Positions 5,425 through 50,977 of a stretch of 64,000 bases of DNA are shown in pieces. Positions within the stretch are counted from its first letter, which is position 1; every line of letters begins with the position of its first letter. The notes beneath the pieces are model-generated. The model was not told where the DNA came from, searched no databases, and saw only the letters and a list, made by a program, of their open reading frames with translations. Source of the stretch: an uncultured Methylomirabilota bacterium (GTDB taxonomy: Bacteria > Methylomirabilota > Methylomirabilia > CAVQYV01); the NCBI GenBank assembly GCA_963718295.1, contig CAVQYV010000005.1:25933-89932 (forward strand). Direction: 5' to 3'. Position numbers and translations under genes: made by a program.

Positions 5425-5507
5425 GGCAGGCGGATGAACTGGTGGATTCTCCCGTATCTTCGCCCATTTTCAACAGAGTCTCACAGCACTTTCAGGGGGG
5501 TCCTTCG

Positions 5508-7587
5508 ATGAAGAGAAAACAGAAGATGTGGATGCTTTTCGCTGTGATGGGCTTCCTCGGCCTGATGATCCCTGAGTCCCAGGCCTATATGGATCAGATT
5601 TTGGCCGCCAAGGCCAAGGCGGCACTCGGAGAGGCCGTCCTCCAGATGGGGGCGGTACCCTCCCCCTCGCCCTCCCGGCGTCAGATCATCGATGCGGACA
5701 AGGGGGCTTCCTGCCTGGTGTGCCACCGCATGCCCTATCCAACAGCTCCCCAGAAACCTGCCAAAGTTGGCGAACAACCCCTGTCGTCCATTCAAACCAA
5801 TCCCCCCGGTGGATGGCGACTCCTGACCTCTCTCACCGCCTCCGTAAATGCGATCGCCGGTGGATGGAGCCCCGATGGCAAGCAGGTCTGCTACTCCTTG
5901 AACCTTTCCGGGAAGGATTGGGATATATGGACGGTCGATTCCGATGGCAAGAACCGACGCCCCCTGATCGCCAGCTCTGCCGCGGAGTTAGCCCCCGACT
6001 GGAGTCCGGACGGAAAGTCAATCGTCTTTCAATCCAATCGTGCAGGAGATCATGATGTCTGGATGATGGAGCTTGGCTCCAAGAAGCTGACCCAGGTCAC
6101 TCAGGGCCCAGGAGATGACATCATGCCCAGGTGGTCACCGGATGGCAAGGGGATCGTCTTTCAATCCAATCGGTCGGGCAACGAGGAGATCTGGCTCCTG
6201 GAGCTGGCGACCCAGAAACTAACTCAGCTGACGAACCATCCGGCAAAGGACGAGAACCCGATCTTCTCCCCGCAAGGGGATCGGATCTATTTCGTCTCCG
6301 ATCGCTCTGGCAACAAGGATATCTGGGCCATGAAGCTGGATGGCTCCGATCCCCAGGCATTGACCCACGCCCCGGAGGACGACATCGCCCCCCACCCCTC
6401 CTCCGACGGCCAGAAGATCGTCTTCTCCCATAAGCAGGGGGACAACCTGGACCTGTGGGCCATGGACGCCGATGGGAGCCATCCGATCCGTCTCACCACC
6501 CATCCTTCGGCAGAGCTGGGACCCTACTTCAGCCCGGACGGCAAATGGATCCTCTTCTCCTCCAATGTGCGGGGCACCTGGGATGTGCTCTGCATGCAAG
6601 TGGATGCCTCCATGATCGATCCTGAGCATAGCCCCATCAAACGCCTCACCGACAGCGAGGCGAGGGAGGTGGGAGCAATCTTCAGTCCGGATGGGCAAGA
6701 AGATCGCCTACAATTCGGATGCCAAGGGCCACTGGAGCCTCTGGGTGATGAATGCGGATGGCTCCCAGAAGAAGCAGCTCACCGCCGACGATGAAGATGC
6801 CGGTTGGCCCGCTTGGAGCCCGGATGGGAAGAAGATCGTCTATTGGGGAACCAAGAACGGAAATCAGGATGTCTGGGTCATCGATGTGGATGGAGCGAAC
6901 AAGAAGCGCCTCACCGACCATCCGGCCCTGGACGGCGATGCCCAATGGAGCCCGGATGGGAAGAAGATCGTCTTCGTCTCCGAGCGGACGGGAAAGGGCG
7001 ATCTCTACCTGATGGAATCCGACGGCTCCAATCAGAAACGGCTCACCTCCACCGAAGCCCTCGATTGGACGCCTTACTGGTCCCCGGATGGCAAGACCAT
7101 CGCCTATGTCTCCAATCAGACCAAGAATTTCGAAATCTGGACCCTGAACCTGGAGACCTTGGAGGCCAAGCACCTCACCCCCAATACTTGTGGCAGCTTC
7201 GTTCCCCGCTGGAGAGCAGATGGAACCCGGATCTCCTGTGTGACCTGGCGAGGCGGTGAGTACACCATCAAGGGGAGTTTTGATCTGTCCACCATGAACA
7301 TCGATGGCAGCGAGAAGACGGATTTGGTTCCCTCCCCCCTCGACGAGCGATCGCCCCGTTGGATCGCGGACGGCAGTGGCATCGTCTTCTGGTCCTGGCG
7401 GACGGGAAATCCGGAGATCTTCACCATCAGGCCCGATGGGAGCGACCTGACGCAGATCACCGATAATCTGGCCTACGATGTCTTTCCCTCCTCCAGCCCG
7501 GACGGAAAGCGGATCGCCTTCGAATCGGACCGGATGGGGAACTTCGATATCTGGGTGGTGGAGGTGCGTGATCACGTGATCAGTTGA
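5508..7587 (+). pseudogene. Tandem paralog of the preceding cytochrome-motif/PD40 beta-propeller protein. Interrupted by a 1-nt insertion near 6696, which may be a sequencing error.
   Basis: RBS GGGGGG. Signal peptide MKRKQKMWMLFAVMGFLGLMIPESQA. Motif SCLVCHRMPYPTAP. The frame breaks at 'gggcaagaagatc' (copy 1 has 'gggcagaagatc'). The ORF 6691-7587 then continues in another frame with the same PD40 repeats. Confidence 0.6.
6540..7575 (+). repeat. Second copy of the ~1.03-kb near-identical direct repeat (partner of 4391-5424).
   Basis: Same as above. Confidence 0.85.
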
Positions 7588-15823: not shown

Positions 15824-15844
15824 GGGTACACAAAAAAGACCCTG

Positions 15845-15998
15845 AACTCCGACCCGGCAACTCCTACAGCACTTGGTGCCATGGAGGCTGGGCGGTAGGG
15901 CTCATCTGGAAACGGGTGCGCCTCCCGTGCTTGGAAAGGAGTTCGAGTAGCAGCCGTGATCGGCCGGCGTGAGACTCATCTCCGTCGGCCTTCTTTTT
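15845..15998 (+). ncRNA. Candidate structured RNA, copy 1 (riboswitch-like leader or sRNA). A ~100-nt conserved domain is followed by an intrinsic terminator (8-bp G/C stem plus TTCTTTTT).
   Basis: ~90% identical to 17836-17940. The predicted helices (aactcct/aggagtt, agcac/gtgct, ggaggc/gcctcc) are preserved in copy 2 with G-U compensating changes. The terminator stem ggccggcg...cgtcggcc also co-varies between the copies. Confidence 0.45.
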
Positions 15999-17821: not shown

Positions 17822-17835
17822 TGGACAAATATCGA

Positions 17836-17988
17836 AACTCCGACCCGGCAATTCCTAAAGCACCCGGTGCCATGGATGCCGGGCGGTAGGGCTCATCTGG
17901 AAACGGATGCGCCTCCCGTGCTTGGAAAGGAGTTCGAGTGGCAGCTCAGATTGGCCGACGTGGGGCTCAACTCCGTTGGCCTTTTTTG
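17836..17988 (+). ncRNA. Candidate structured RNA, copy 2 (paralog of 15845-15998), with its own intrinsic terminator (ggccgacg...cgttggcc plus TTTTTT).
   Basis: See copy 1. It is followed by ~240 nt of divergent leader and then the porin gene. Confidence 0.45.
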
Positions 17989-18226: not shown

Positions 18227-19783
18227 ATGAAAGGCATCCGAGGCACCCTCATCGCAATCATTGCCTTGGCCCTTCTCTTCTTCCTCCCCGGCTCGGGATT
18301 CGCGGCGGAAAAGTCTCTGGCCGACATCCTCAAGGAAAAGGGGATCCTCACCGAGGAAGAATACCAACAAGTCAAGGAGTTGGAGGAATCCCAGAAGGCG
18401 GGAGAGGCCAAAAAGGCAGAAGAGGCGACCAAGCAGGCAGAGGAAGCAACCAAGCAGGCAGAAGAGGCGACCAAGCAGGCCGAAGAGGCAACCAAGAAGG
18501 CAGAAGAGCTGGCCAAGAAGGCGGCGGCCGAGAAACCCGCCCCCGTGGTTGCCGGCTACAAGAAAGGGTTCTTCATTCAGACCCCGGATGAGAAGTACAA
18601 GCTGGTCTTCAACGGATACGTCCGGGGCATGCTTGAGCTTTACGAGAACAACACCTCCCAGGACAACCAATTCGATATCAACCGGGCCCGCCTGAACCTC
18701 AAAGGATATTATGGGAAGTACTGGATGGGGGAGGTATCGGCAGAGCTCACCACCGCCAGCGATAGCAGATTCCTCAAGTACGCCTATATCAATAACAGCT
18801 ATCTCCCCTACTTGCAGGCTCGGGTCGGACAGTTCAAGGCCCCCTTCAGCCGGGAATATCTGATCACCCTGGCCGATGTGGAGACCATCATGCGGGCCAT
18901 GATCACCGATGCCGGCGGAACCTTACCCAAGTATGACATCGGTGCCATGCTGTGGAGCCCTAACGTCTTCAACGGGCTGCTCTGGTATGGAGCGGGAATC
19001 TTCAATGGCAACGGGGCCAATAATTTCGATTCCAACGATGACATGGATTTCATTGGCCGCCTGGTCGTGGCCCCCTTTGCCCCCACCCAGATCTCCGCTT
19101 TGAAGGGCCTGGAATTCGGGGGTTCCGTGCAAACTGGAAGGCAGACCCCTAACCAGAGCTATTCGCCCAGGCTCCCCACCAATTGGTCCCTATTCGGGAA
19201 CAACAAAACCAGCTTCAGTTACCGCGGACAGCGGGACCGCTACGCCCTGGAGGCATCCTACAAGTGGGGTCCCCTCACCCTGCGGGGGGAATGGATCTAC
19301 CAGCGCCTGGAGCGGGAGAATCAGGTCAGGGTCGATCCGACTACCAATGCCATCAGCTCCTCGGGAGAGCTGATGGATGCCCCGGATCTGATCTCCTGGG
19401 GCTGGTACGTCCTGGGCAGCTATTTTGTCTGGGGGAATCAGGATAAAGGCATCCAACTGGTAGCCCGCTACGAGCAGTTCGATGTGGATGATGATCCAGC
19501 CGCCGAGAAGTACCGTAAGGCCAATCCCATGGCGGAGAACTCGGTCACCAACCCCTGGGGCAATGACCTCAACATCAGGGGAAATACGGCGGATGTCCTG
19601 ACTCTGGGCATCAACTATTTCCCCTATCCCAATGTCCGATTGGCCTTCAACTGGTTCTATCAGACCCTCGACAACACGTACACCACCGATAAGATCAAGC
19701 ACAACAACGATGGAGGTGAGTTCTTCACCGGTGGAGGGGGAGCCATGAATTCCTTCTGGCTCATGGCCCAGGTGAAGTGGTAA
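18227..19783 (+). CDS. Phosphate/anion-selective porin of the OprO/OprP family, with an N-terminal coiled-coil heptad-repeat region.
   Basis: GGAG RBS. Signal peptide MKGIRGTLIAIIALALLFFLPGSGFA. Four copies of (AEEATKQ). A long beta-barrel region with a C-terminal aromatic residue (…AQVKW). Confidence 0.7.
   Translation: MKGIRGTLIAIIALALLFFLPGSGFAAEKSLADILKEKGILTEEEYQQVKELEESQKAGEAKKAEEATKQAEEATKQAEEATKQAEEATKKAEELAKKAAAEKPAPVVAGYKKGFFIQTPDEKYKLVFNGYVRGMLELYENNTSQDNQFDINRARLNLKGYYGKYWMGEVSAELTTASDSRFLKYAYINNSYLPYLQARVGQFKAPFSREYLITLADVETIMRAMITDAGGTLPKYDIGAMLWSPNVFNGLLWYGAGIFNGNGANNFDSNDDMDFIGRLVVAPFAPTQISALKGLEFGGSVQTGRQTPNQSYSPRLPTNWSLFGNNKTSFSYRGQRDRYALEASYKWGPLTLRGEWIYQRLERENQVRVDPTTNAISSSGELMDAPDLISWGWYVLGSYFVWGNQDKGIQLVARYEQFDVDDDPAAEKYRKANPMAENSVTNPWGNDLNIRGNTADVLTLGINYFPYPNVRLAFNWFYQTLDNTYTTDKIKHNNDGGEFFTGGGGAMNSFWLMAQVKW
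18416..18520 (+). repeat. Tandem 21-nt repeat (about 5 units, gcagaagaggcgaccaagcag) encoding EEATKQA heptads inside the porin gene.
   Basis: Read from the sequence. Confidence 0.75.
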
Positions 19784-23080: not shown

Positions 23081-23911
23081 ATGGCTTTAGTGCGCGAACG
23101 CGACGGGCGCCGCCTGCATGTCAAAAGCAAGTTGATGGGAGAGAGTCTGGTCAGCAAATCATTCGTTGAGGGGTTAGAAATAGCCCCTCAACAGCGTCTT
23201 TTCCCGGATGTGAATATCCTCAAGGTAGGAGGGCAATCCATTTGTGACCGCGGGGTGAAGGCGGTCCCCGATGTGATTCAAGAGATCGTTGCCAATAAAG
23301 GGGAGCACAAGATGCTGGTGACCACCGGGGGTGGGACGCGGAGCCGCCACATCTATTCCATCGGGCTGGAGCTGGGCATGCCCACCGGGATCATTGCCAA
23401 ATTTGGAAGTTCGGTCTCGGAACAGAACGCCCTCCTCATCAGCACGCTCCTCTCCCCCTGGGGAGGAATCAAGATCGGCCACGACGAGATCGTCAAGCTC
23501 CCCACTTACTTTGCCCAGGGCTGTATTCCGGTCACCCACGGCATGCCTCCCTACGACTTTTTTGCCATTCCGCCCGAAAAGGGACGGATCCCCGTCCATC
23601 GAACCGATGTGGGCACATTGCTCTTGGCCGATCTGATCGGTGCCAGAAGCTGCATCTTCATAAAGGACGAGAAGGGACTTTACACGGACGATCCCAAAAA
23701 GAACCCCAAAGTGGAATTCATCGCTGAGATTGGGGCCAAGGAGCTTCTGCGCAGAGGTCTGGACGATCTGATCATCGAACGGCCCTGCCTGGAGATCCTT
23801 CAGAATAGCCAGGTAATCACCCGGATTTACATCATCAACGGTCTCGAGAAAGGGAATATCACCCGAGCCCTCCAGGGCGAAAATGTAGGGACCATCATTT
23901 ACAAAGAATAG
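23081..23911 (+). CDS. Amino-acid-kinase-family protein resembling the molybdenum/tungsten storage protein subunits MosA/MosB (UMP-kinase fold).
   Basis: Motifs LKVGGQSICDRG, VTTGGGTRSRHIYSIG, GSSVSEQNA, and C-terminal NGLEKGNITRALQGENVGTII. It is ~276 aa, the same size as MoSto subunits. AGGAG RBS. It is embedded between tupA and tupBC. Confidence 0.65.
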   Translation: MALVRERDGRRLHVKSKLMGESLVSKSFVEGLEIAPQQRLFPDVNILKVGGQSICDRGVKAVPDVIQEIVANKGEHKMLVTTGGGTRSRHIYSIGLELGMPTGIIAKFGSSVSEQNALLISTLLSPWGGIKIGHDEIVKLPTYFAQGCIPVTHGMPPYDFFAIPPEKGRIPVHRTDVGTLLLADLIGARSCIFIKDEKGLYTDDPKKNPKVEFIAEIGAKELLRRGLDDLIIERPCLEILQNSQVITRIYIINGLEKGNITRALQGENVGTIIYKE

Positions 23912-24092
23912 TGGGCGACCCGAACCATTTCCTCTAAAGGCCTTGGGTCCATGAGGAATGGTCGATAGGGTATTGTGGGAAACGACAATGCCTCCCGTGT
24001 TTGGAAAGGGTGAAGACGTGCTGAGTAGAATGCCAGTGCCTGATCCAACGAGGCCACTGGCATTTGTTTCTTGCCCCAACTGAGGAATACAG

Positions 24093-25929: not shown

Positions 25930-26844
25930 GTGCCCGACTTTAAGATTCATCCTCTGGATTTGCATTTCAATTACTGGCCGGAATCCATCGCCTCCTTTCT
26001 GGTGATCGGGCCGGAAGGCCCGGTGCTCGTGGAAACGGGCCCTGGCTCGACCCTCCCAACGCTCTTGGCCGATCTGGCCCGGCATCATGTGTCGCCCAGT
26101 GATGTGCGCCATGTCCTGGTGACCCATATCCATCTCGATCACGCGGGTGCGTCTGGCTGGTGGGCACAGCAGGGCGCCACCGTTCATGTCCATCGCTTCG
26201 GCGCGCAACACCTGATCGATCCCTCCAAGCTTCTTTCCAGCGCCCAACGCATCTATGGAGATATGACGGACCGCCTGTGGGGAGGGATCATCCCGGTTCC
26301 CCCTGATCGCGTTCACCCCCTGCAGGATGGCGATCCGATTCAAGCCGGCGGCCTGACCTTCGTGGCCCTTGACACCCCGGGCCATGCGCGCCACCACATG
26401 ACCTATGGCCTCGGTGATGTGGCCTTTACCGGCGATATGGCTGGGGTCCGTCTTCCTGGACGGGCACATATCCAGGTGCCGACCGTCCCTCCCGAATTTG
26501 ATCTGGAGGACTGGAAGGCGAGCCTGGAGCGGGTGCGAGCTTGGGGTTTCGCCCGGATCTATCTCACCCATTTTGGCCCGGTGGACGAGGTGGAAGTTCA
26601 CCTTACGACCACGGCTGCATTGCTCGCCGAATACGCCGAACGGGTTCGACAGGAGATGGTTCGGGGAGCTACCCGGGGAGAGATCATCCAGCAGGTTGTG
26701 GAATGGGAAGCGGACAACCAGAACCGAGAGGGCTCTTGCGCCCAAGGAGAAGCGACCCAAACCGGCTTCGGCTCGATCAGCACCTACGTGGACGGGATCA
26801 TGCGGTACTGGAACAAGCGCCTTGAACTGCCACCTGGCAGGTAA
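25930..26844 (+). CDS. MBL-fold metallo-hydrolase.
   Basis: THIHLDHAG motif. GTG start with an AGGAGGG RBS. Confidence 0.75.
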   Translation: MPDFKIHPLDLHFNYWPESIASFLVIGPEGPVLVETGPGSTLPTLLADLARHHVSPSDVRHVLVTHIHLDHAGASGWWAQQGATVHVHRFGAQHLIDPSKLLSSAQRIYGDMTDRLWGGIIPVPPDRVHPLQDGDPIQAGGLTFVALDTPGHARHHMTYGLGDVAFTGDMAGVRLPGRAHIQVPTVPPEFDLEDWKASLERVRAWGFARIYLTHFGPVDEVEVHLTTTAALLAEYAERVRQEMVRGATRGEIIQQVVEWEADNQNREGSCAQGEATQTGFGSISTYVDGIMRYWNKRLELPPGR

Positions 26845-39292: not shown

Positions 39293-40657
39293 ATGATTCG
39301 CGAGGAAAGGATCCAGCCTCTCAACCAGAAGCCCATCAGGCGCGGGAGAATCGTCCTGTATTGGATGCAGGCATCTCAGAGGACCGAATGTAATCATGCT
39401 CTGGAGTACGCCATCTTGCGGTCCAACGAGATGAAGCAGCCTCTGGTGGTCTATTTCGGGCTCACCGACCGGTTCCCCGAGGCCAACCAGCGACATTACC
39501 ATTTCATGCTGGAGGGGCTCAGGGAGGTGCAATCTTCCCTGCGGGAACGGGGCGTCAAGATGGTAGTGCGAGAGGAATCCCCCGAAGTGGGCGTTTTGAA
39601 GTTGTCCGGGGACACCTCCCTGGTAGTAACGGACCGGGGCTACTTAAGGATCCAGGGAAAATGGCGCAGCCATGCGGCAGAGCGAATCGATTGCCCCCTG
39701 ATCCAGGTGGAGACCGATGTGATCGTCCCGGTGGAAGAGGCATCGCCCAAAGAAGAATATTCCGCCGCCACCTTCCGGCCCAAGATCAAGAAAAGGCTGG
39801 AGGCCTTTCTCACCCCTCTGAGCCAGCATGACCCGAAGGTTTCCTCCCTCGCTCTGGATCTCGATTCCTTGGACTTGAAGGATCCGGAGCGCCTCATCTC
39901 CCATCTCGACATCGAGCGCGGGGTCAAAAGGGCGAGAGACTTTCGCGGGGGGGCGGAGCAAGCGAAAAGCCGCCTGCGGGCCTTCCTGGAAACTCGACTG
40001 GACCGCTACCCTGAGGACCGCAACGATCCCAATCTCGATTCCCTCTCGGGCATGAGCCCCTATCTCCATTTCGGGCAGATCTCCCCCCTCCACATCGCCC
40101 TGGAAGTATTGAAAACGGGCAGCCCCGGGACAGAGAGCTATCTCGAAGAGCTGATCGTACGCAGGGAGTTGAGCATGAATTTCGTGTTCTACAATCCCAA
40201 CTACGACTCCTGGGAAGGACTGCCCGGTTGGGCAAGGCGAAGCCTGCAGGAGCACGAAGGGGATCGCAGGGAGTTCGTCTATACGTTAGAAGACCTGGAG
40301 GGCGCCAAGACGCATGATCCTTACTGGAATGCGGCCCAGCGAGAGATGACCGGCATGGGGAAGATGCACGGCTATATGCGGATGTATTGGGGCAAGAAGA
40401 TCCTCGAATGGAGCCCATCCCCGGAGGAGGGACTCAAGAATGCCCTCTATCTGAACAACAAGTATGAGATCGATGGAAGGGACCCCAACGGGTTTGCCGG
40501 GGTAGCCTGGTGCTGGGGCAAGCACGACCGCCCCTGGCAGAAGAGGCCAATCTTCGGCAACATCCGCTACATGAACGCGGCCGGCCTGAAAAGAAAGTTC
40601 GATGCAGATGGTTATGTGGAAAAGATCGAGCGGCAGATTGCGGGGGCTCCTGGATGA
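39293..40657 (+). CDS. phr: Class II CPD deoxyribodipyrimidine photolyase.
   Basis: Full-length similarity to class II photolyases (…GKMHGYMRMYWGKKILEW…NGFAGVAWCWGKHDRPW…). Confidence 0.85.
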   Translation: MIREERIQPLNQKPIRRGRIVLYWMQASQRTECNHALEYAILRSNEMKQPLVVYFGLTDRFPEANQRHYHFMLEGLREVQSSLRERGVKMVVREESPEVGVLKLSGDTSLVVTDRGYLRIQGKWRSHAAERIDCPLIQVETDVIVPVEEASPKEEYSAATFRPKIKKRLEAFLTPLSQHDPKVSSLALDLDSLDLKDPERLISHLDIERGVKRARDFRGGAEQAKSRLRAFLETRLDRYPEDRNDPNLDSLSGMSPYLHFGQISPLHIALEVLKTGSPGTESYLEELIVRRELSMNFVFYNPNYDSWEGLPGWARRSLQEHEGDRREFVYTLEDLEGAKTHDPYWNAAQREMTGMGKMHGYMRMYWGKKILEWSPSPEEGLKNALYLNNKYEIDGRDPNGFAGVAWCWGKHDRPWQKRPIFGNIRYMNAAGLKRKFDADGYVEKIERQIAGAPG

Positions 40658-40878
40658 GGTCGACCACCCGCGATGTCCTGATCCTACTCCTGATCCTACT
40701 CCACGTCTCCCCAAGAGGGGCGCGAAGACGTGATCTCCTCACCCTGCTGCGACCCTCTTGCCCCTCGCCGGCCGGGAGTCCATGCGAAGATGGCCCGTTT
40801 CTTTGGAGTGATTACTTCTGCCGTCGACCGCCTGGCAGCCACTTGGAAGGTCAAAGGGACGGAGCGTGCAAGTTCATA

Positions 40879-40916
40879 AGACGAGCCAAACAAGTTGTTT
40901 TAGAACCAACGTCCCC
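40879..40916 (+). repeat. 38-nt direct repeat, copy A (gacgagccaaacaagttgttttagaaccaacgtccccc). Its partner is at 45614-45651.
   Basis: 36 of 38 nt are identical between the copies. Both are intergenic and together flank a 4.7-kb segment. Confidence 0.7.
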
Positions 40917-40972
40917 CTTTAGTTTTCCCTTTACGGGGCTGCTTGTACGCGGCCCCGTTGGGTGAGCTTTCC

Positions 40973-41845
40973 CTACTTGATCTCGGCCACTCCGTTGCCC
41001 GGGGTGGGCCATTTTTGGTAAACCTTGGGATCGTGGCCGGGGACAATGAGATCGGGAGAAGAGGCCACCTCCTTGATCCTTTCCAGAGTCTTGTAGGCTT
41101 CCCAACTGCCCTGACCCGTCCCGATAGGCGTCATGGTCTCGATGTTCTCAAACATATAGACGATGTCAGAGGCCAGGACGACCCTCCCTGATGCGGTGTT
41201 GACCGAGATCCACTGGAATCCGTAGGTGTGCTTTCCTCCGAGATAGCACCTGATTCCGGGGATGATCTCCTTATCGCCTTCGATCAGCTTCACTCGCCCG
41301 TCCCAGTTCCAATTTACCAGGGCCAGGACATCCTCCCTGCTCAAGCCGATCTTCCCGAAGTTGCTCTGAGCCGCCGCTCCGGCCGCGAACTCCAGTTCAT
41401 CCTTTTGTATCCAAATGGTGGCCTTAGGATTGAAGTTCTTGATGTTGCCGGCATGATCCCAGTGGGCATGGGTGAGGATGATATCGGTAACTTCTTCCGG
41501 CTTCAGGCCGATCTTGGAGAGCAACTTGTCGGTTCGGGTCCAGTCCTTGATGCCCCACTTGGTCACGAGCTTCTCGTCGGAAAAGCCTGTGTCCACAACG
41601 ATCACCTTGCCATCGCCCGTGATGACCCAGAAGGACCAGTCCAGGATCATCTTCTCCCCGGGGTTGCCCAGGTTGAAGAGATAGCTCCTGTCATAGCCCT
41701 CCATCGTTCCGTAATGAATGGCGTAGACCTGGTATTGAGGTATAGAGGCATGTTTACAGGCGTGGGCTGCCCAAGCAGGACTGAAGGTCCCTACCGCCAA
41801 GACCACAAAGATCAGCGCCAGAACCACCCATATTCTCTTCATCTT
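40973..41845 (-). CDS. Secreted MBL-fold metallo-hydrolase (AHL-lactonase-like HxHxDH family).
   Basis: Signal peptide MKRIWVVLALIFVVLAVGTFSPAWA. ILTHAHWDHAG motif. Confidence 0.7.
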   Translation of the reverse strand, partial: KMKRIWVVLALIFVVLAVGTFSPAWAAHACKHASIPQYQVYAIHYGTMEGYDRSYLFNLGNPGEKMILDWSFWVITGDGKVIVVDTGFSDEKLVTKWGIKDWTRTDKLLSKIGLKPEEVTDIILTHAHWDHAGNIKNFNPKATIWIQKDELEFAAGAAAQSNFGKIGLSREDVLALVNWNWDGRVKLIEGDKEIIPGIRCYLGGKHTYGFQWISVNTASGRVVLASDIVYMFENIETMTPIGTGQGSWEAYKTLERIKEVASSPDLIVPGHDPKVYQKWPTPGNGVAEIK

Positions 41846-42276
41846 CGCTCCTTTTCGAAAGGGTTGTTGGCTCCCAGATGCAACACAATAGAGCACGCTG
41901 CCTTGCTTTTCTATGACAGCGCCTTCGATTTGTCAACCGCTAATCGGATGGGGCCGCGGTGGAAAAGACTTTGAGAGAGTCAGAGAATCTAATTGGTATC
42001 CAGTCAAGATTCTATGGGCACCCCTCTCTCCCCTCTCTCCTTGACCAGGCCTTGGTCCTGCTCATTGATTTGATTGCCTCGACCATCAAGGACCGCCCCA
42101 CCTAAGGCGATTTGAGACGATCAGCAAGATGAAGGCCTTTTGTGGTTCCCCCCGCCTGGCCCGATCCAAATGGCCCGAAAGCAGGGCAAAGGATTTGACA
42201 AGGCAGACGGGGAGGTATAATAAGAGAGGGGGGCGGCTTCTGCAGTCGGACGATCACCAACGAGGAGGAGCAAGAG

Positions 42277-43329
42277 ATGGCAGGTGGGATTCGGATCGCA
42301 TTTGGCCAGTTCCGGGAGTTGACCGAGAAAGATCTCCTTTTTGCCCGGCAGTTGGGCGCGAGCGGGGTCACGCTGAACACACCCCTCTTCCAGGGGAAAT
42401 CCCTTTATGGGGTGGACATCTTCATCAATGCCCGAAAAGGGGCGCCGGAGGCATCCCCGCCGGCAGCCCGATGGGACTTCATGGAGATCGTGCAGCTTTG
42501 CTCCATGGTGGAGGACTACGGGCTCAGACTGGAAGCCATCGAGAACACGCCCATCTCTTTCTATGATAAGGCGATGCTCGGGCTTCCCGGCCGGGATGAG
42601 CAGATCGAGCATTACCAGGAGATCATCCGCATGCTGGGCAAGGCCGGGATCCCCATACTGGGATATCACTGGATGCCTGCCCAAGTCTGGCGTACCTCCA
42701 AGAGCACCCCTGGCCGTGGAGGGTCGCTGGTGAGCTCATATGACCAGCGCCTGGCAAAGGATGCACCCCTTGCCTTCGCTCGAGCTATCACCGAGGAAGA
42801 GCTTTGGGCCAACTACAAGTACTTCATCCAGGCCGTCCTTCCCATAGCCGAGGAGGTCGGCGTGAAGTTGGCTCTCCATCCGGACGATCCACCCACGGAA
42901 GAGCCCCTGGGCGGTGTGGCGCGGATCATGGGAGGGCTCAAAGGTTTCCAGCGTGCCATGGAGATAGGGGACAGCCCGAATCACGGATTGGATTTTTGCA
43001 TCGGGAGTTGGGCATCTAAATCCGTCGGTGAGATGATGGAAGGGTTGCAGTATTTTGGCCCTCGAGGGAAGCTCTTCTATGCCCACCTTCGAAACGTCAG
43101 GGGATCGGTCCCCAGGTTTCAGGAGACCTTCATCGACGAGGGGGACGTGGATGTAGTGGCAGTCCTGCGGGAGATGCTCGAGGTAGGATTTGACGGCTTC
43201 ATCATCGATGATCACGTTCCCAAGATGGTGAACGATACCGCCTGGGGACATCGAGGGCGAGCCTTTGCCACCGGGTACATCACGGGTGTGCTGAGGGCCA
43301 TTCAGACTCCTGGCTCGCAACTGTCATGA
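42277..43329 (+). CDS. uxuA: D-mannonate dehydratase UxuA-family protein.
   Basis: UxuA-like sequence including LALHPDDPP and the xylose-isomerase-like TIM-barrel context. GAGGAGGAG RBS. Confidence 0.7.
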   Translation: MAGGIRIAFGQFRELTEKDLLFARQLGASGVTLNTPLFQGKSLYGVDIFINARKGAPEASPPAARWDFMEIVQLCSMVEDYGLRLEAIENTPISFYDKAMLGLPGRDEQIEHYQEIIRMLGKAGIPILGYHWMPAQVWRTSKSTPGRGGSLVSSYDQRLAKDAPLAFARAITEEELWANYKYFIQAVLPIAEEVGVKLALHPDDPPTEEPLGGVARIMGGLKGFQRAMEIGDSPNHGLDFCIGSWASKSVGEMMEGLQYFGPRGKLFYAHLRNVRGSVPRFQETFIDEGDVDVVAVLREMLEVGFDGFIIDDHVPKMVNDTAWGHRGRAFATGYITGVLRAIQTPGSQLS

Positions 43330-43455
43330 ATTCCTCTGGCAGCCACGACCCCGATCGCTTCGGCTTGGCAACATGGGAAATATAACATCCATAACTTCAT
43401 AAGTTTCTATCTCTTCCCCTCGCGAACCAGAAACTCCGAGTTGTATTTCGAAAAG

Positions 43456-44580
43456 CTAACCAGCCTCGGCCAAACGAATCTGATAGATCCGTGCGTCGTT
43501 GCCGTGGATAACGCCGAGTTGGGCACTCGGTTCTGTAACTGCAACGCCGCTTTCAGCGAGCGGATAGGTACAGTTCTCGATCCACGCGCCCAGATCCATT
43601 AAGAGCATTGGCCTTCCTCCACTCGGCCTGCATAGAGTCAGGGACGCCTTATGGGTGTGCCCCATCGTGACCACTCTCACATGCTGGCCTGGCAGGTCCC
43701 TCTCTTGTGCGATATCGATTGATCGATAGAGCTTTTGAAAATAGGGATTGGCGGCGCTATCCGGCGATGGTATCTCCTGACAAACGAAAGGAGGGAGCGT
43801 CTTCTCCGGGATGACCTGAATCGCCCCTCCAGGAGCTTCGAGATTGTGTTCAGGATCTGTGATCGCCTTCTCGAGTTCCCTTATGGGTTTGTTAATCCCC
43901 GCGGTCTTCTTGCTCCACTCCATCACCGGATACTTATTCGGCTCAACCCATGCGCCGATAAAATATACCCCAAACTCCTCGATAGCATCGGGGAGGGTGG
44001 TTTCGAGGATATCAAAGGCGTCGCCGTGGGTGCCAAAGAGGAAGGGCTTTTCGTCCTGTGCCCTGTTGAAAAATTTGTAGCGAAAAGGAATCTCCTGTAA
44101 AGGGTCGCTTCTTTTCGTGTCATGGTTTCCCAAGAGCATAGTCGCTTTGAGGCATGGCCCTCCCCGGTCAATCCCCCGATAGAGAAGGTCCCGCAGGTCA
44201 CCATGGGCATCATCGGGTATTTCCGCTGGCTTTGCCGATCCAGGAAATTCCCTCCAGAGGTCAAAGAAATCTCCGAGTTGAACCGTGACCAGTTTCCTGA
44301 TGCGATTTGACTCCCAGGAATTCCTCAGAGCAACCATGCCCTCCAACAGTGGTACAAGCAGCCCGGACTCGCTGTGATTGAAGCCGTACTTGAAACGCTG
44401 CCGTCTTTGCGGGGAGAGTAAATGGAGATCGGGGATGAGAAAGAACACTTCCCTCTCCGAGGCATTTCCAAGGACAGGATCACTGACACGGCCGAGGAGC
44501 CTGATTTCCCCCCTGAGAGGGCCAAGGACTTCAAGCATTGCCGAGACTACTTCGTCGTGGGGATTCATCGGCATCGTCAA
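43456..44580 (-). CDS. Calcineurin-like metallophosphoesterase.
   Basis: Metallophosphoesterase motifs GDFFD, GNHD, GHTH. Confidence 0.7.
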   Translation of the reverse strand: MTMPMNPHDEVVSAMLEVLGPLRGEIRLLGRVSDPVLGNASEREVFFLIPDLHLLSPQRRQRFKYGFNHSESGLLVPLLEGMVALRNSWESNRIRKLVTVQLGDFFDLWREFPGSAKPAEIPDDAHGDLRDLLYRGIDRGGPCLKATMLLGNHDTKRSDPLQEIPFRYKFFNRAQDEKPFLFGTHGDAFDILETTLPDAIEEFGVYFIGAWVEPNKYPVMEWSKKTAGINKPIRELEKAITDPEHNLEAPGGAIQVIPEKTLPPFVCQEIPSPDSAANPYFQKLYRSIDIAQERDLPGQHVRVVTMGHTHKASLTLCRPSGGRPMLLMDLGAWIENCTYPLAESGVAVTEPSAQLGVIHGNDARIYQIRLAEAG

Positions 44581-44584
44581 CCTC

Positions 44585-45313
44585 CTATTGGGGTTTCTTG
44601 GCTGGGAAATCCTGGGCCTTTCCCTTTTCGGGAGCTACTACTAACCGCGAATAGCGGTTACTGCCGGGGAGCTGATAAAGAATGAACCAGAACTTTTCGA
44701 AGCGAAAGGCGAGCACGTCTGCAAAGGCACGGAGGCGATAACGGGAATCCATCACAGCATCAGCAAAGTCGACATTCAGATTGGACAATTGACGGATCAC
44801 CTGAGTCCTTCCTCCAGACAGCTGTTCTCGTGATCCGAGAAACTCCAGCACAGGCGAATAGGCGATCTGGGCGGATCTAATATCTCCCGTGGTTTCACCA
44901 GGCTGGACGCCTGCTTGTGCATAAGGTCCCTCGGCCAGGAAATCGATGAGGTCGTCACGATCGCTCCGTCCGTCCTGGATCGAAGCGGCGGCAAGGGGAA
45001 GGGGCACCCCGGTGAAGAGGGGAACGACATTCGCTGCGGGAAGGGCATCGGGAGCAGATCCATTCTCTGAGTATTGCGCCTTCGGGAAATATTCCGAACC
45101 AGAGGGCCTATAGACCTCATCGACAGGTACCCTGCTCACCGTTTCCGCCGATCCAGCCGTTACTGAGGTAAGGATTGCCCTCGTCCTGTTATGGTCATAC
45201 CTGTCATAAGGCGATCCCACATGAACGACTTTCGCAGCGCAGCCTGCAACGAGAAACACAAAGATGAGAATGACTGCAAAGGGCCAGTTTCTGATGCGAT
45301 GGTTTCCTGCCAT
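44585..45313 (-). CDS. Hypothetical lipoprotein.
   Basis: Lipobox LVAGC after a signal peptide. GAGGGAGG RBS. It lies 4 nt upstream of the phosphoesterase gene on the same strand. Confidence 0.5.
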   Translation of the reverse strand: MAGNHRIRNWPFAVILIFVFLVAGCAAKVVHVGSPYDRYDHNRTRAILTSVTAGSAETVSRVPVDEVYRPSGSEYFPKAQYSENGSAPDALPAANVVPLFTGVPLPLAAASIQDGRSDRDDLIDFLAEGPYAQAGVQPGETTGDIRSAQIAYSPVLEFLGSREQLSGGRTQVIRQLSNLNVDFADAVMDSRYRLRAFADVLAFRFEKFWFILYQLPGSNRYSRLVVAPEKGKAQDFPAKKPQ

Positions 45314-45325
45314 GACCTCCCTCCC

Positions 45326-45478
45326 TCACCTGCGGAATTTCTTCCTCTTGGACTTTTTTCTCTTCATCTTCCCGCTTATGGTCTTCGCCAGCTCATCCAT
45401 GAACTCAACCCTCCTCGGATACTCATAGGGTGCCGTGTGCTTCCACACGAATTCCTGGAGCTTCCTTGCCGGCGCGCC
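45326..45478 (-). pseudogene. C-terminal ~50-aa remnant of an AMP-dependent synthetase/ligase (acyl-/acetyl-CoA synthetase). The upstream portion of the gene is absent.
   Basis: The minus-strand translation is [44 protein letters not shown], which matches the conserved AMP-binding C-terminus (…YKxPRxVEFVDELPKTxSGKIxR). An in-frame TAG lies immediately upstream. Confidence 0.55.
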
Positions 45479-45613
45479 CTATGGCTGAGGTCACCTCATG
45501 AGAACTGCAAAAGCCCTAACACATTATCCCTAAGTTCATCAGGATTTGCAATGACGGCGCATTCTTTCACCGCGGGATGCTTTGGTGGGATGGGCGCAGG
45601 GTACGATTCATTT

Positions 45614-45651
45614 GACGAGTCTAACAAGTTGTTTTAGAACCAACGTCCCCC
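45614..45651 (+). repeat. 38-nt direct repeat, copy B (gacgagtctaacaagttgttttagaaccaacgtccccc).
   Basis: See copy A at 40879-40916. Confidence 0.7.
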
Positions 45652-45847: not shown

Positions 45848-46205
45848 CTACTCCTTCTCCCGCAGGCGCATGATCTCCTGGTAGATTGCCCTCGCCTGCT
45901 GCTCAGAGCAGCTTTCCGTCGAAAAGGGGGGCATGATGCTGTCGGATCCATCACGCGCCTTAGGGCTTCGGATATAGGACAGAAAGGTGTCGAAGTCCTC
46001 CAACTGAGGCGCTCCTTTCAGGGGCAGGTGGGGCTTGAATACATTGCCGCCATCGGGGTGACAGGCGCCGCAGGTTTGGTTGAATTGTTCCGCGGCGGGC
46101 TGGCCTTCCGGCACCTCCGCCGCCATCAGCTTCCCCTGGGCTTTTACAGGGCTTCTCCCCAGTGGGCAGGGAGATCAAAAAAAGAAGGGTGATGACAAAT
46201 AGCAT
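45848..46205 (-). pseudogene. Small class I c-type cytochrome (CGACH). Its signal peptide and heme domain are in different frames (the shift lies between a T7 run and the heme motif).
   Basis: ORF 45960-46244 gives the signal MLFVITLLFLISLP. ORF 45848-46126 gives AAEVPEGQPAAEQFNQTCGACHPDGGN...MPPF (CxxCH plus a distal Met region). Confidence 0.5.
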
Positions 46206-46297
46206 CACACACCGGGGGAAATCGGATAGAGTTCCCTTTCGCATTGGAATTGACCTCCGGGGCGATTTGTCAATCTACGGATAAGACCAAGCTGCGC

Positions 46298-47507
46298 TCA
46301 TAGACCCAGGATGTGGGCTCGTACGGTGGAAAATATCCCGGAAGGGGTGAGGGCCGGGATTTCTTTGACCCGCTGAAATGTCTTGGTATCGAGGATAACT
46401 ACTTTGTTTTCCTTGTAACAAGACACATAGATATTCTTTCCCTTGGGGGTGAATGCCATGTGGAAGACCCGATCACCGATCTCCAAGGTCTTGATGACCT
46501 CCAGCTTCAGAGAATCGATGACCTGCAAAAACCGGTGATTCTCGCCCGAGAAGTTGACCCACACATGGCGGCCATCTGGGCTGGCCATGGAGAACATGGG
46601 GGTGCCTGCCAGATCGATGGATTTCATAAGCTTCCAGGAACCTACCTCATAAACCGCCAGACGCTCCTCCCCCACCACGGGCGCGAAGAGAAGATTGTTG
46701 GCGATGGCCCATCCGCCCAGATGAGGGACCTTCGTCACGGCCACCTTAGGGCTTTTCCCGTGAGGGCTCTTGCAGGGAAATCTCGTCCACCTTGTCGAGG
46801 GTCCATGTATCCAGCCTCGCCAGGTGATCGGAGTGATACAGGGCGGCGATATAATATCGGCCGTCGGGAGTGAGTAACGCATCAAAAGGCATTCTGCCCA
46901 CATTCCAGAACTTCTTGATCACCGGAAACTCGGGTTGATCGGCATCCAGAACCCAGATGCCGTCGGCATCCATCAGGGAAAAGATCAGAAGGTTCCCGGG
47001 AGCCTCCACTATACCCACGGCTCGGGAAGGGATCTCTCCCCCGCCCCCTTCCTTATCCTCTCTCAGCGCTGGAACGGTGTGCACGATGGTGAGATTTTCG
47101 GCATCGACGATCTTCACATCAGCCGGCTTATAGTTGGCTACGGCGACGAATCGGTTGTCTTGGGTCACCGCCAGACCGATGGAGCTCTCACCCACTTTGA
47201 TCCTGGCGGTGCACTTCAGGGCCAGAAGATCCAGCTTATTGAGCCAGCCATCGCGAGTGACGAGATAGGCATAGCGGGCGTCGTGGGAAAAGGAGATTGT
47301 GGCATGGTGCAACACACCCAGATCGGGGATTCGCCCCAGGATTTCATGGCGAAGGGAGTCGACCACGACGACGCTGGAATTTTCTCGTTCGATGATGACC
47401 ATCAGAGCCCCGGTCCCCCACTGGGCCCCGGAAATGGCGGGGAGAAGAAGGAGCCCGCAAATCACTGCCCAGACTGCCCACACGCCGATGCACAAGTATC
47501 GCTTCAT
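46298..47507 (-). pseudogene. nirF: Cytochrome-d1-type 8-bladed beta-propeller protein (NirF-like heme d1 biosynthesis/insertion protein) with a frameshift near 46765-46790.
   Basis: Two ORFs, 46746-47507 and 46298-46903, both carry cd1-propeller-like repeats. An N-terminal signal peptide is present and there is no heme c motif. The genomic context is next to nirJ and a cd1 nitrite reductase. Confidence 0.55.
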
Positions 47508-47510
47508 GGC

Positions 47511-48710
47511 TTACCTCAAGAGGATCAATGATTCCTGGTTCATAGAGATCTCTTCATGGGTCAGATAGCACGAGGGATCGGATCCCCACCAATCGGAGGA
47601 TTGGGCAAAGGCCCTGGCGCGGGAGTTTCCGCCGCACAAGTTCACGAACCGGCACCCTCCGCAGCGTCCGTGAAATGGCCCTCTGCGCCCTCCCAGCCCG
47701 ATGAAGAAATGTTCGGACGAATCGGACAAGATCTGTCCGAGCGGGGTTTGCCTCACGTTGCCCAGCGAGATTCCTCTGCAAAATGGATCAGGATGGACGC
47801 TGCCCCAGGGATCGATGTTGATCAATCGAACCCCGACCCCAGAGCCACCTCCCCTGTCCTGTATCAGGAGATCGTGCATCCTCTTTGCCACCACTGGGCT
47901 TTCCCGCTCCACTGACAACAGGAGAAACGGGGCATCGGCCTCATTGTTACCGGTTACGATTTCGCGGGGGGAGGATTCGTCTTGCACATAATCCATCGCC
48001 TTTCGAATGAGGAGGCTCATGGCTTCCCGCGTCTCGGCCTGCCCCAGGGCCATCCTCCCCATCGCTCTATCCGAGTAATTCAAGTGGGAAACATATAGCT
48101 TTCTCAGGTTTTCTCGTTCAAAAAGATCGATGACAAAGGGAAACTGGGAAGCGGTGTAGGAGTCAAGGAAAAGCGGAGCCCCACCTTGATCCCCGCATCC
48201 CGGCACAGCCGAATGCCTGCCAAGGATGCCTCGTAAGCCCCTGCCTGCCCGCGAAATGCATCGTGCTTCCCTCGCGATCCGTCGATGCTGATTCCCACAT
48301 AGTCAATGCCGCTATCCGAGATCTTCCTCACTTGAGCTTCATCTATGAGGGTTCCATTGGTGGAAAGGGCGCAGGATATACCCTTGGCCCGTTGCATAGG
48401 CGGCCAATGGGTAAAGGTCCTGCCTGAGCATGGGCTCCCCGCCCGATAGGATCAGGACGAAAACATCCAGCCTGGCCAGATCATCGATGACAACTTTGGC
48501 CTCCTGGGTGCTCAGCTCGCCCTTGCCGCCCTCCCCTTCCCCCGAGCTGCCTGAGTTCGCATCTGCATAGCAGTGGCGGCACGCAAGATTGCAGCGGTTG
48601 GTCAGATTCCATATGACCACATGTCCAGACCGTCGATGTCTGGTTCCGGGCGCAGGCGATGGGGCGCAAGGATTATAGGCTTCTCTGAGCAGGCTGCTGA
48701 TCCTCAACAT
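47511..48710 (-). pseudogene. nirJ: Radical SAM/SPASM protein NirJ-like (heme d1 biosynthesis), split by two frameshifts (~48350-48400 and ~48110-48200).
   Basis: Fragment 48339-48710 has the CNLACRHC radical-SAM cluster motif. Fragment 48104-48397 has ISCALSTNGTL. Fragment 47511-48206 has SPASM-type Cys motifs (CGGCRFVNLCGGNSRARA). Confidence 0.6.
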
Positions 48711-48727
48711 CGATCTCTACCCTACCC

Positions 48728-49386
48728 TCATTTCTCTAAAGCGCGGAAGTGATACACATAGGCGCCCAAATTCTTGATTTCCTCGTCCGTCAGGTCGAAT
48801 TTCGGCATCGTCTGCTCGGTGTAGCCGAGGATCTTGCTGCTGGTGTAGGGAAACTTGATCTGGCCTACGATGGCTCTGACGTCCCTCTGGCGAGCTACAG
48901 TTCTGTAGGCGGGGGCGAAGGCCTCGTATTCAGGGTGATGGCATCCCATGCAATACTCGCCAAATAGGGAATTGCCTCTTTCAATGCCCCGGGGATCATC
49001 CCACCAGGCCGACGCCTCGGCCACTCCGAGGTTGCCATTCTCCTTGACCCGGATCTCTTTCCTGCTTTCGGGGCGCGTGGTCTTGAAATAGTGAGCCAAC
49101 AGGCGCAGCTCATCGAGGCTCAACCGGCAGTCCCAGGCGGGCATCAAGGTGTCCAGGATCCCATATCGAACCAATGATCGGATGCCAGCCTCGCTGAGCG
49201 CGCCCAGGTCTGCAGGAATCAGGGGAACGCCGACAAATCCCATCCGGTCAAAGCCATGGCAGCCAGCGCAGTTTTCCAGGTAGATCTGCCTTGCCGCCCA
49301 TTCATCCCTCGAATCTTCCCCCCAGAGACCGCCAGAAAGATGAGAAGGACGATCGCAGCGGACAGGAAAGGCAAGATTCCTTTCAT
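48728..49386 (-). pseudogene. Diheme c-type cytochrome (NirC/NirB-like). A 1-nt deletion in a G6 run separates the signal peptide from the first heme motif.
   Basis: Signal MKGILPFLSAAIVLLIFLAVSGG. In the +1 frame it continues ...EDSRDEWAARQIYLENCAGCHGFDRMGFVGV..., and the second motif is CMGCHH. Confidence 0.6.
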
Positions 49387-49396
49387 GAATGGATCC

Positions 49397-50977
49397 CTAC
49401 TGGATCGATTTCTCCAAGCCCACCGTGATGATCTTGGGGCGGACATGGGAGAAGATCCCTGCAGGCACCTCCATCGAAAATTCCCCAACCCTCTCGAAGG
49501 TGTCGGACTTGTAGATCACGAGCTTGTCCCCCTGGTATCCGGCGCTCACGTAGAGATAGTCGCCCCTGGCGGTGTACTCCGGGAAGTGAGCATGACCGCC
49601 GACCGTGACGGTCTTGACCACATCGAGGCTTTCCTTGTCAATGAGCTGGATCTTACCGGCATTAGGCCCCGTGCCCACGATATCCACCACGATGTACCGA
49701 GCTTGGGGATGAGCTGCGGGCGATTCCGTGGGTCCGAGCACCGGTATCTGCTTCACCACCTGCCAGGTATCCAAATCCCAGACGGAGACCACGCTCTTGT
49801 CGCAGCCACCGATGTTGGTCCCCACACCCAGAGTTCGGCCCCCCACCTTCACCACCGCACCTGAGCCGACATGGGGCTGGCATCCCCCGGGTATCTTCTG
49901 GACGATCTTCTTCTCCTTCAGATCAATGGCCGAATACACATTGTCCTCATAGGAGGCGATCATCAAATAGCGCCCATCCGGGGAAAGAAATCCGTCGTGC
50001 AGGCGCCTACCCACGTTCTCCACCTTGGTGATGGGCATGCCAGGCTTGTTGTACTCGATGATCCAGACCTGGCCCGCATCCTTCAAGGCGATCACCAAAT
50101 AATCCGCGAAGGGCGTCCCGGTCACCATTCCGGAGCGAGATTCGACCCTATTGCCGTCCGGGTCCGTCCCTTTCAGCTCCATGAACTTCACTGGCTCCAG
50201 CGTCTTGGCATCCAGGATGACTGCGGTTTGGGGGACAAACGAACCGGCCATCACATAGCGGCCATCCCTCGATACCGCAAGGGGAGGCCCGTTGAATCCG
50301 ATGCGGACCCTTCGCACCGCCTGCAGGGAATAGAGGTCCATCTTGTACACATGGCCCGAGTCGGTCTTGATGTAGGCCCAGCGCGGGTCAGTGGGGTGGT
50401 AATCGACCAGATGGGGGGCATGGCTGGTGGGAATTTCGCCGACCTTCCGGTTGGTCTTTCCATCGAAGAATACCACCTTGCTGTTGCCAGTGGCGTAACG
50501 CCCTCGGGACATGACCGCCATCAGGTCATCCAGATCCTCGATGGGATAGGTCGGCTGGGACGGAAGTGCAGATTCATCCTCGACATAGACCTCCAGCGAC
50601 TTCTGGATGTCTTCCATGCCCCAGGATACATTGGCCTTGGAAGTGCTCTTGAAAAGGGCGGCCAGCTTGCGGATGTCGGCTGGGGGAAGTTTGCCTCCCC
50701 AGGGCGGCATCAGGGTATCCATGACCCCGGTCGTGATCATGGTCCTGAGGGCAGCTTCACTCAATGGCTTCAGGGCTTCCTTCGTCAAAGCCGGCCCTAT
50801 GAAACCGCCCCGGTCCGCACCATGGCAAACGGCACAGTTCTTGGCGAAGATCCCCTCGGCGTCCTCCAGGTCCCCAGCGATTGCCGTGGCCCAGGGAAAG
50901 ACGAAAAGCGCCCCTACGATGACCGCTCCGTAAATGGCCTTTGTCAACCGATCATAGGTTCCGCGATAGGTTCTCAT
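49397..50977 (-). CDS. Cytochrome cd1 nitrite reductase family protein (NirS or NirN). It has an N-terminal c-heme domain plus a d1 beta-propeller.
   Basis: CAVCH heme motif with a distal Met region (…LMPPW). The long beta-propeller portion has conserved His residues. 526 aa. Confidence 0.75.
   Translation of the reverse strand: MRTYRGTYDRLTKAIYGAVIVGALFVFPWATAIAGDLEDAEGIFAKNCAVCHGADRGGFIGPALTKEALKPLSEAALRTMITTGVMDTLMPPWGGKLPPADIRKLAALFKSTSKANVSWGMEDIQKSLEVYVEDESALPSQPTYPIEDLDDLMAVMSRGRYATGNSKVVFFDGKTNRKVGEIPTSHAPHLVDYHPTDPRWAYIKTDSGHVYKMDLYSLQAVRRVRIGFNGPPLAVSRDGRYVMAGSFVPQTAVILDAKTLEPVKFMELKGTDPDGNRVESRSGMVTGTPFADYLVIALKDAGQVWIIEYNKPGMPITKVENVGRRLHDGFLSPDGRYLMIASYEDNVYSAIDLKEKKIVQKIPGGCQPHVGSGAVVKVGGRTLGVGTNIGGCDKSVVSVWDLDTWQVVKQIPVLGPTESPAAHPQARYIVVDIVGTGPNAGKIQLIDKESLDVVKTVTVGGHAHFPEYTARGDYLYVSAGYQGDKLVIYKSDTFERVGEFSMEVPAGIFSHVRPKIITVGLEKSIQ

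Follow-up and report, generated by a model that had tools for sequence, protein, structure and literature searches.

Two short direct repeats in the genome of an uncultured Methylomirabilota (NC10) bacterium are very probably decayed and immobile relics of the 3'-side ends of a transposable element of about 1.07 kb, which encodes a Y1 transposase, with the 4.7 kb between them being host DNA. The repeats lie in a stretch of 64,000 nucleotides (nt), positions 25,933 to 89,932 of the forward strand of contig CAVQYV010000005.1 (assembly GCA_963718295.1). This whole stretch is referred to here as the window, and the coordinates given are those of the window unless a relative is named. The initial annotation of this DNA had seen 38-nt repeats around a segment with a gene remnant, and offered three readings of them: att-like scars left by an element on integration or excision, recombination sites that had caused the gene to be truncated, or members of a dispersed family resembling repetitive extragenic palindromes (REP) or miniature inverted-repeat transposable elements (MITE).

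A repeat search of the window placed copy 1 at 40873-40917 and copy 2 at 45607-45651, both 45 nt in length, 91% identical, in the same orientation and 4734 nt apart from start to start. The 29-mer AACAAGTTGTTTTAGAACCAACGTCCCCC is identical in the two copies; with as many as 3 mismatches allowed, the window has no third copy of it, and shuffled sequences gave 0 matches in 100. The identity of 36 of 38 nt first reported is exact, with the 38-mers at 40880-40917 and 45614-45651 differing at 2 positions, and the description of two like-oriented intergenic copies about 4.7 kb apart was confirmed, the chance expectation being none. The right edge of the similarity is sharp and falls directly after CCCCC, and on the inner side an alignment with one indel suggests that the similarity may reach about 20 nt farther, to ~40852 and ~45586. 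Copy 1 lies between the convergent genes of a photolyase (39293-40657, plus strand) and a metallo-beta-lactamase (MBL)-fold hydrolase (40973-41896, minus strand), and copy 2 has a lipoprotein gene and the remnant of an acyl-CoA synthetase gene (acs) on one side and a cytochrome c gene (45848-46126, minus strand) on the other. The independent short-read Logan contig L099 (99.97% identical, no gaps) contains both copies and the same frameshift in acs. No inverted partner of the repeat was found in the 64-kb window, and a MITE, which has two inverted ends less than ~400 bp apart and no coding capacity, was rejected there for want of such a partner. The end of a longer paralogous duplication was also rejected, as an alignment of 700-nt flanks showed similarity over only ~45-65 nt.

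The repeat is found well beyond this genome. Its 26-nt core, AAGTTGTTTTAGAACCAACGTCCC(C/T), occurs at more than 200 loci in Thermodesulfobacteriota, NC10 and other metagenome-assembled genomes (MAGs). An exact scan for the 20-mer GTTGTTTTAGAACCAACGTC, with one genome per species, gave 98 genome loci, nearly all of them in MAGs of Thermodesulfobacteriota or "Deltaproteobacteria", with NC10 and a few other hosts; several copies in one genome are common, and many of the copies are at contig ends. The lone Flavobacterium locus is without the flanking AA and CCC, and fits the ~1 chance hit estimated from the size of the database. A metagenome scan for the 26-mer added 116 further loci. Among 211 unique instances in other genomes, from which the boundaries of the core were set, conservation is limited to AA...CCC(C/T), followed by about 5 weakly conserved, T-rich nt. 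The left flanks group into a small number of multi-copy families and the right flanks are unique; therefore the left side is the interior of the element. A fuzzy search returned 37 inverted pairs of these terminal inverted repeats (TIRs), more than 20 of them spaced exactly 1068-1072 bp and the others 170-375 bp, the shorter pairs being MITE-like and retaining only the N- and C-terminal stubs of a gene. The classifiable copies comprise ~96 solo ends, 37 in full elements and 33 in MITE-like forms, and no target-site duplication is visible at the element loci. In addition, 48 pairs of neighbouring TIRs in the same orientation bracket host genes, and among pairs more than 1.4 kb apart there are 13 direct against 4 inverted. 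The layout of the window, with same-orientation ends around host genes, is typical for the family and not special. Of the readings in the initial annotation, the dispersed family is essentially right, given the number of loci, the MITE-like forms and a transposase resembling the REP-associated tyrosine transposases (RAYT), but the repeat is a TIR and not a palindromic REP.

The intact element is about 1.07 kb long and is bounded by TIRs of 26-30 bp, reading GGGG(G)ACGTTGGTTCTAAAACAACTT ... AAGTTGTTTTAGAACCAACGTC(C)CCC. They enclose a single gene of ~333 codons, the 3' end of which overlaps one TIR, and the ATG of which stands ~27 nt from the inverted copy. The protein is composed of an N-terminal Y1 HUH nuclease, similar to those of IS200 and RAYT, and a C-terminal helix-turn-helix (HTH) weakly resembling DnaA_C. 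All 15 members tested matched Pfam Y1_Tnp, the HxH and Y..HxNP columns being invariant, and 10 of the 15 gave a weak match to Bac_DnaA_C (best E 5.4e-5, none reaching the gathering score). The NCBIfam model REP_Tyr_transpos (NF047646) was matched at E 2e-15 and 56.9 bits, against a RAYT equivalog cutoff of 80. The best profile matches in the PDB, ISDra2 TnpA and E. coli TnpA-REP, were marginal (E~0.16-0.19), a single-sequence search of the PDB gave no hit, and a plasmid search (PLSDB) gave only catalytic domains of 30-40% identity, with no close plasmid-borne copy.

Two published descriptions come close to this architecture. The TIRYT genes are RAYT-like and flanked by long TIRs, some of which share GGGGWSAS, and these TIRs make up moderately abundant repeat families (Di Nocera, De Gregorio & Rocco 2013, PMC3733652). 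HUH subclass 2.1 consists of long proteins with Bac_DnaA_C/HTH tails and without REP hairpins nearby, and has been equated with TIRYT (Quentin et al. 2018, PMC6006769). On domain architecture, and with a Bac_DnaA_C match below the Pfam cutoff, the family appears to fit this TIRYT/TIRtron class, that is, HUH subclass 2.1. Like TIRYT/TIRtron elements, it has a Y1 gene between long TIRs, a GGGG-type start and no REP hairpins, the gene and one TIR overlap at the 3' end of the former, and TIRs are also solo, dimeric and clustered. Like subclass 2.1, it has a long Y1 protein and no REP-like hairpins nearby, and its C-terminal extension weakly resembles that of the subclass, which is of the Bac_DnaA_C, HTH_23 or HTH_28 type. 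The described examples differ in being without this TIR sequence and without Thermodesulfobacteriota or NC10 hosts, and the window differs from a TIRYT/TIRtron in holding only two dead 3'-side ends in the same orientation. A search of a literature library for the TIR sequence found nothing in a relevant context, and only two papers in it mention TIRYT.

It is at copy 1 that the window can be tied to these genes. The DNA left of copy 1 can be aligned with the 3' ends of intact genes, and it keeps the register that these have to the TIR. When an intact TIRYT was compared with the window by tblastn, the match was at 40772-40852 (E 0.008), and a profile of 9 TIRYT proteins matched 40784-40861 (E 4e-4), with AKMARFFGVITSAVDRLAATWKVKGT against aevarflGvttsavnrlavseelael. 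The reading frame of the window enters copy 1 as ...DEPNKLF*, and intact genes end in ...KLF*, with a TAG inside the TIR. Copy 1 retains ~130 nt of the C-terminal coding region of the transposase and copy 2 ~40 nt of the same tail. The lineage-specific tail GACGAG.C.AAC, present in both window copies, corresponds to the last codons of the transposase gene, and an intact copy of this gene would be predicted to end in ...GACGAG(C/T)C(A/T)AACAAGTTGTTTTAG. Because both copies carry this tail, both are 3'-side ends of one subfamily in direct orientation. The statement in the initial annotation that no integrase or transposase is present holds inside the 4.7-kb segment; outside it, immediately left of copy 1, lies the C-terminal remnant of the Y1 transposase. 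An intact transposase gene was not found in the 64-kb window. The parts of the two copies are as follows.

40745..40879, plus strand: C-terminal (HTH) remnant of a TIRYT, a Y1 HUH transposase; pseudogene fragment that stops at the TAA at 40877-40879.
40873..40891, plus strand: inner tail common to both window copies, lineage-specific, TTCATAAGACGAGCCAAAC; corresponds to the final codons and the stop of the transposase gene.
40892..40917, plus strand: TIR core of copy 1, AAGTTGTTTTAGAACCAACGTCCCCC; outer 3'-side end, with the outside to the right (nhmmer E 9.6e-13).
45586..45625, plus strand: inner tail of copy 2; homologue of the copy 1 tail, truncated at about 45586 in alignments.
45626..45651, plus strand: TIR core of copy 2, oriented like that of copy 1 (nhmmer E 5.2e-12).

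The family stands apart from better known systems with related enzymes. In the REP/REPIN-RAYT systems, short dispersed extragenic repeats reportedly flank a single Y1 HUH transposase and depend upon it (Nunvar 2010; Bertels & Rainey 2011). As in these systems, the family has inverted doublets, here MITE-like and of 170-375 bp, and many singletons; unlike their palindromic stem-loops of 20-40 bp, the repeat is not palindromic, forming at best an AT-rich stem of 4+2 bp, and the protein falls below the RAYT equivalog cutoff. REPs have a GTAG or CGTC tag next to the stem; here a CGTC occurs inside ...CAACGTCCCC, away from any such stem of 8-9 bp as defines CGTC REPs. A strict REP/RAYT system was rejected on the non-palindromic repeat and on the bit score given above. 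With the IS200/IS605 elements (IS608, ISDra2) the family shares the Y1 HUH domain, the lack of a target-site duplication and a probable single-strand mechanism. The ends of IS200/IS605 are non-inverted subterminal hairpins, whereas the family has true TIRs without stable hairpins and an additional HTH domain, and a classical IS200/IS605 element was rejected for its true inverted ends.

Several features of the family elsewhere were observed in passing. Directly beyond the TIR, the terminal CGTCCCC together with 4-5 nt is repeated in tandem at 15 of 179 loci (L147, L150, L151, L165, L196, L199 and L204 are among them), compared with 2-4 in control windows. This may be a trace of cleavage and rejoining at the ends; copy 1 of the window has an imperfect version of it (CCCCCTTTAG/TTCCCTTTACG). 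Units of gene tail plus TIR are tandemly duplicated 38-75 nt apart at L194, L165, L196, L114, L150, L085 and L111. The MITE-like derivatives keep ~50 N-terminal and ~45 C-terminal transposase codons between inverted TIRs (L092 at 6714-7001; L055, L076, L077 and L087, 226 bp; L040 and L143, 195 bp), are multi-copy in some genomes and seem to be a frequent cause of contig breaks. In the Syntrophaceae L.E.D.11_1 MAG, near-identical repeat units with transposase gene ends recur, some at contig ends, and its sole fully resolved copy (L092) is an internally deleted derivative.

Y1 HUH enzymes such as those of IS608 and ISDra2 and TnpA-REP carry out strand-specific, single-strand cleavage and rejoining through a catalytic tyrosine. 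The element would move by this HUH tyrosine route, with single-strand cleavage and rejoining at its TIR ends, and the HTH tail plausibly binds the TIR and thereby aids recognition. The cut is predicted within or just beyond ACGTCCCC(N3-5). Deletions begun inside the elements would then have removed the interior and the other end of both copies, and the deletion at copy 2 would also have taken the 5' ~85% of acs. The intervening 4.7 kb would be ordinary, variable host DNA lying by chance between two independent insertion relics.

The content of this 4.7-kb interval was correctly listed in the initial annotation, as judged by Pfam, signal peptide, lipobox and motifs. Its genes are the following.

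40973..41896, minus strand: secreted metallo-beta-lactamase-fold hydrolase (Pfam Lactamase_B, signal peptide); a host gene, outside the element.
42277..43329, plus strand: uxuA, mannonate dehydratase (Pfam UxuA, E 4e-60); a host gene, found alone in other contexts in close relatives.
43456-44580, minus strand: metallophosphoesterase-like protein of 374 aa, with DxH, GD, GNHD and GHTH motifs and no Pfam hit.
44585-45313, minus strand: lipoprotein of 242 aa with an LVAGC lipobox, forming a two-gene module (43456..45313) with the 374-aa protein.
~45329..45582, minus strand: C-terminal remnant of an acyl-CoA synthetase, AMP-binding_C (PF13193, E 2.6e-11, 44.7 bits, positions 8-76 of 76).

The AMP-binding_C match was obtained after two frames of a six-frame translation were joined, and the remnant is frameshifted near 45478-45499. 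Its 5' break at ~45582 abuts the inner edge of copy 2 at ~45586, so that a fragment of the element is joined directly to the broken gene. Because of this abutment, the element, or a deletion that began inside it, marks the point at which acs was truncated. The earlier proposal that the repeats are recombination sites behind the truncation therefore stands in part: the inner edge of copy 2 is at the break, but there is no sign of recombination between copy 1 and copy 2.

The 4.7-kb block is, to judge from related sequences, not a unit, because relatives carry uxuA and the lipoprotein/phosphoesterase pair separately. Two close relatives, L222 (5809-7540) and L223 (2981-4051), share uxuA (window 42258-43447) at 92% nt identity, among toxin-antitoxin genes. 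In L222, uxuA is directly followed by the MBL gene, an order opposite to that of the window, with the junction at window 43447|40966, and none of the homology breakpoints (42258, 43328/43447, 40966) is at the repeats. The uxuA-MBL spacer of L222 contains GGGGGACGT...GGTTCTA, resembling the outer end of the TIR. The lipoprotein/phosphoesterase pair alone recurs at ~75% aa identity in different neighbourhoods (L226 8001-9861, L227 8001-9840, L228 1180-3019), and one context of this module is beside CHAT, WYL and type I-E Cas3/Cse1 genes; PADLOC found no defence-system match for the pair. The check on presence or absence of the segment as a unit in relatives, which the initial annotation had proposed, thus came out negative in the contigs compared. 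Closer still are two contigs, one 98% identical over 43247-45538 and the other 93% identical over 43831-45469. Relatives of uxuA at 75-82% aa identity have no neighbour genes in common with the window, a photolyase relative (a contig of JGI 3300075153) has the same photolyase-MBL order with a spacer of 298 nt against 315 nt, and the exact protein of the window cytochrome c is not on record.

These comparisons bear directly upon the rival explanations. Site-specific integration of a 4.7-kb element, leaving att-like direct repeats and excisable as a unit, would account for direct repeats of fitting length around accessory-looking genes in a region that varies among relatives. However, Pfam found no integrase or recombinase at 40918-45606 and ARAGORN no tRNA in the segment or the repeat, the repeat is a transposon terminal repeat with more than 200 unrelated contexts, the remnant of the transposase is not inside the segment, and both copies are the same 3'-side end; together with modules that occur separately elsewhere and breakpoints away from the repeats, this makes the idea of att-like scars extremely improbable. 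A transposase could instead have mobilised or captured the block through its two same-orientation ends, in a one-ended or read-through event like those of IS91/ISCR, leaving a transduced segment. HUH enzymes are strand-specific, and like-oriented TIR pairs around 1.4-3.4 kb of host DNA recur with the excess of 13 to 4 given above, but a local strand bias of insertion accounts for this excess equally well. With no second copy of the block found, with a broken host gene and no element terminus on the inner side of copy 2, and with parts of the block in other arrangements in close relatives, such a capture is very unlikely.

It is very unlikely that the repeats are host REP-like RNA or DNA elements under selection, such as terminators, mRNA stabilisers or protein-binding sites, rather than transposon debris. 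In favour of it are the position of both copies, downstream of genes or between them, the extreme conservation of the core from taxon to taxon, and a strong GC-rich hairpin at 40933-40958, to the right of copy 1. The core itself, though, has no stable hairpin as RNA or single-stranded DNA (-1.6 to -2.5 kcal/mol, no better than shuffles) and no Rfam match, its conservation tracks the ends of transposase genes, and copy 2 has no terminator-like context. The hairpin, ACGGGGC...GCCCCGT, stands between copy 1 and the MBL stop codon and probably serves the convergent genes as terminator; the fold of the 106-nt region (z = -3.6) is due to it and not to the repeat. A known RNA or tRNA fragment was rejected, with nothing in Rfam near the repeats at gathering and permissive thresholds and no tRNA, as was a CRISPR-like repeat or promoter, with no array and with promoter and terminator signals not above shuffles. 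A bolder proposal concerns the family as a whole: an active, cross-phylum insertion sequence family of subclass 2.1, with a distinct cleavage-rejoining mechanism, that truncates its neighbours and carries DNA between like-oriented ends, the 4.7-kb block being one example. That mechanism would be revealed by the near-invariant 26-nt TIR, the CGTCCCC(+4-5 nt) reiterations and the same-strand solo ends; we consider this proposal to have a slender chance of being correct.

The interpretation of the repeats as 3'-side relics of a TIRYT-type element has points that weigh against it as well. There is no intact element in the window, and the assignment consequently depends on the short remnant (E 4e-4 and 0.008) and on positional register. 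The outer end of the TIR, GGGG(G)ACGT (GGGGACGT), fits the published GGGGWSAS at only 6 of 8 positions, a motif that only some published TIRs share (PMC3733652). The deletion of acs is a putative scenario: the relatives at ~75% aa identity are without acs beside the lipoprotein gene, and the 98% and 93% relatives end 69-138 nt before copy 2. Copies in the source genome were counted within the window only. The transposition mechanism, drawn here by analogy, has apparently never been tested by experiment in HUH subclass 2.1.

Other features of the window, away from the repeats, deserve a brief record. Rfam hits in the window are limited to three molybdenum cofactor (Moco) riboswitch aptamers at 15835-15957, 17826-17948 and 23906-24026 (plus strand, 64-76 bits), two of which sit in 84%-identical direct repeats of 177 nt, 1991 nt apart. 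A coding region of PD40/TolB-like beta-propeller repeats with 132-nt periodicity lies at 3500-7560, and within it 300-nt blocks that are 99-100% identical and 2150 nt apart suggest a recent tandem gene duplication. Coding sequence at 18390-18533 consists of about 6 tandem units of 21 nt (CCAAGCAGGCAGAAGAGGCGA) and specifies a stretch rich in K, Q, A and E. Right of copy 2, a nir/heme-d1-type cluster (45848-50977, minus strand) includes the cytochrome c gene. In this cluster a cd1/NirF-like gene is split into the overlapping open reading frames (ORFs) 46298-46903 and 46746-47507, a radical-SAM gene is split into three ORFs (47511-48710), and a 526-aa ORF (49397-50977) looks, from its translation, like nirS, the cytochrome cd1 nitrite reductase. 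Pfam was consulted for the cytochrome c and the 46298-46903 fragment only, the other names coming from translations. The splits point to several frameshifts, to pseudogenes or to assembly errors.

Read as proposed here, the apparent border of an island would become two transposon relics. No integrative element would then be called wrongly in an NC10 genome, and the truncated acyl-CoA synthetase pseudogene would be explained. The family would also serve as a compact, sequence-defined example of TIRYT, or HUH subclass 2.1, a group that was noted in 2013 and 2018 and, to our knowledge, has never been studied experimentally. With intact 1068-bp copies by the dozen, derivatives deleted in nature and a 26-nt end that hardly varies, it could be an entry point for such experiments. 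The 26-mer, in turn, marks elements of the family in MAGs from anaerobic sediments, where they are a likely cause of contig breaks.

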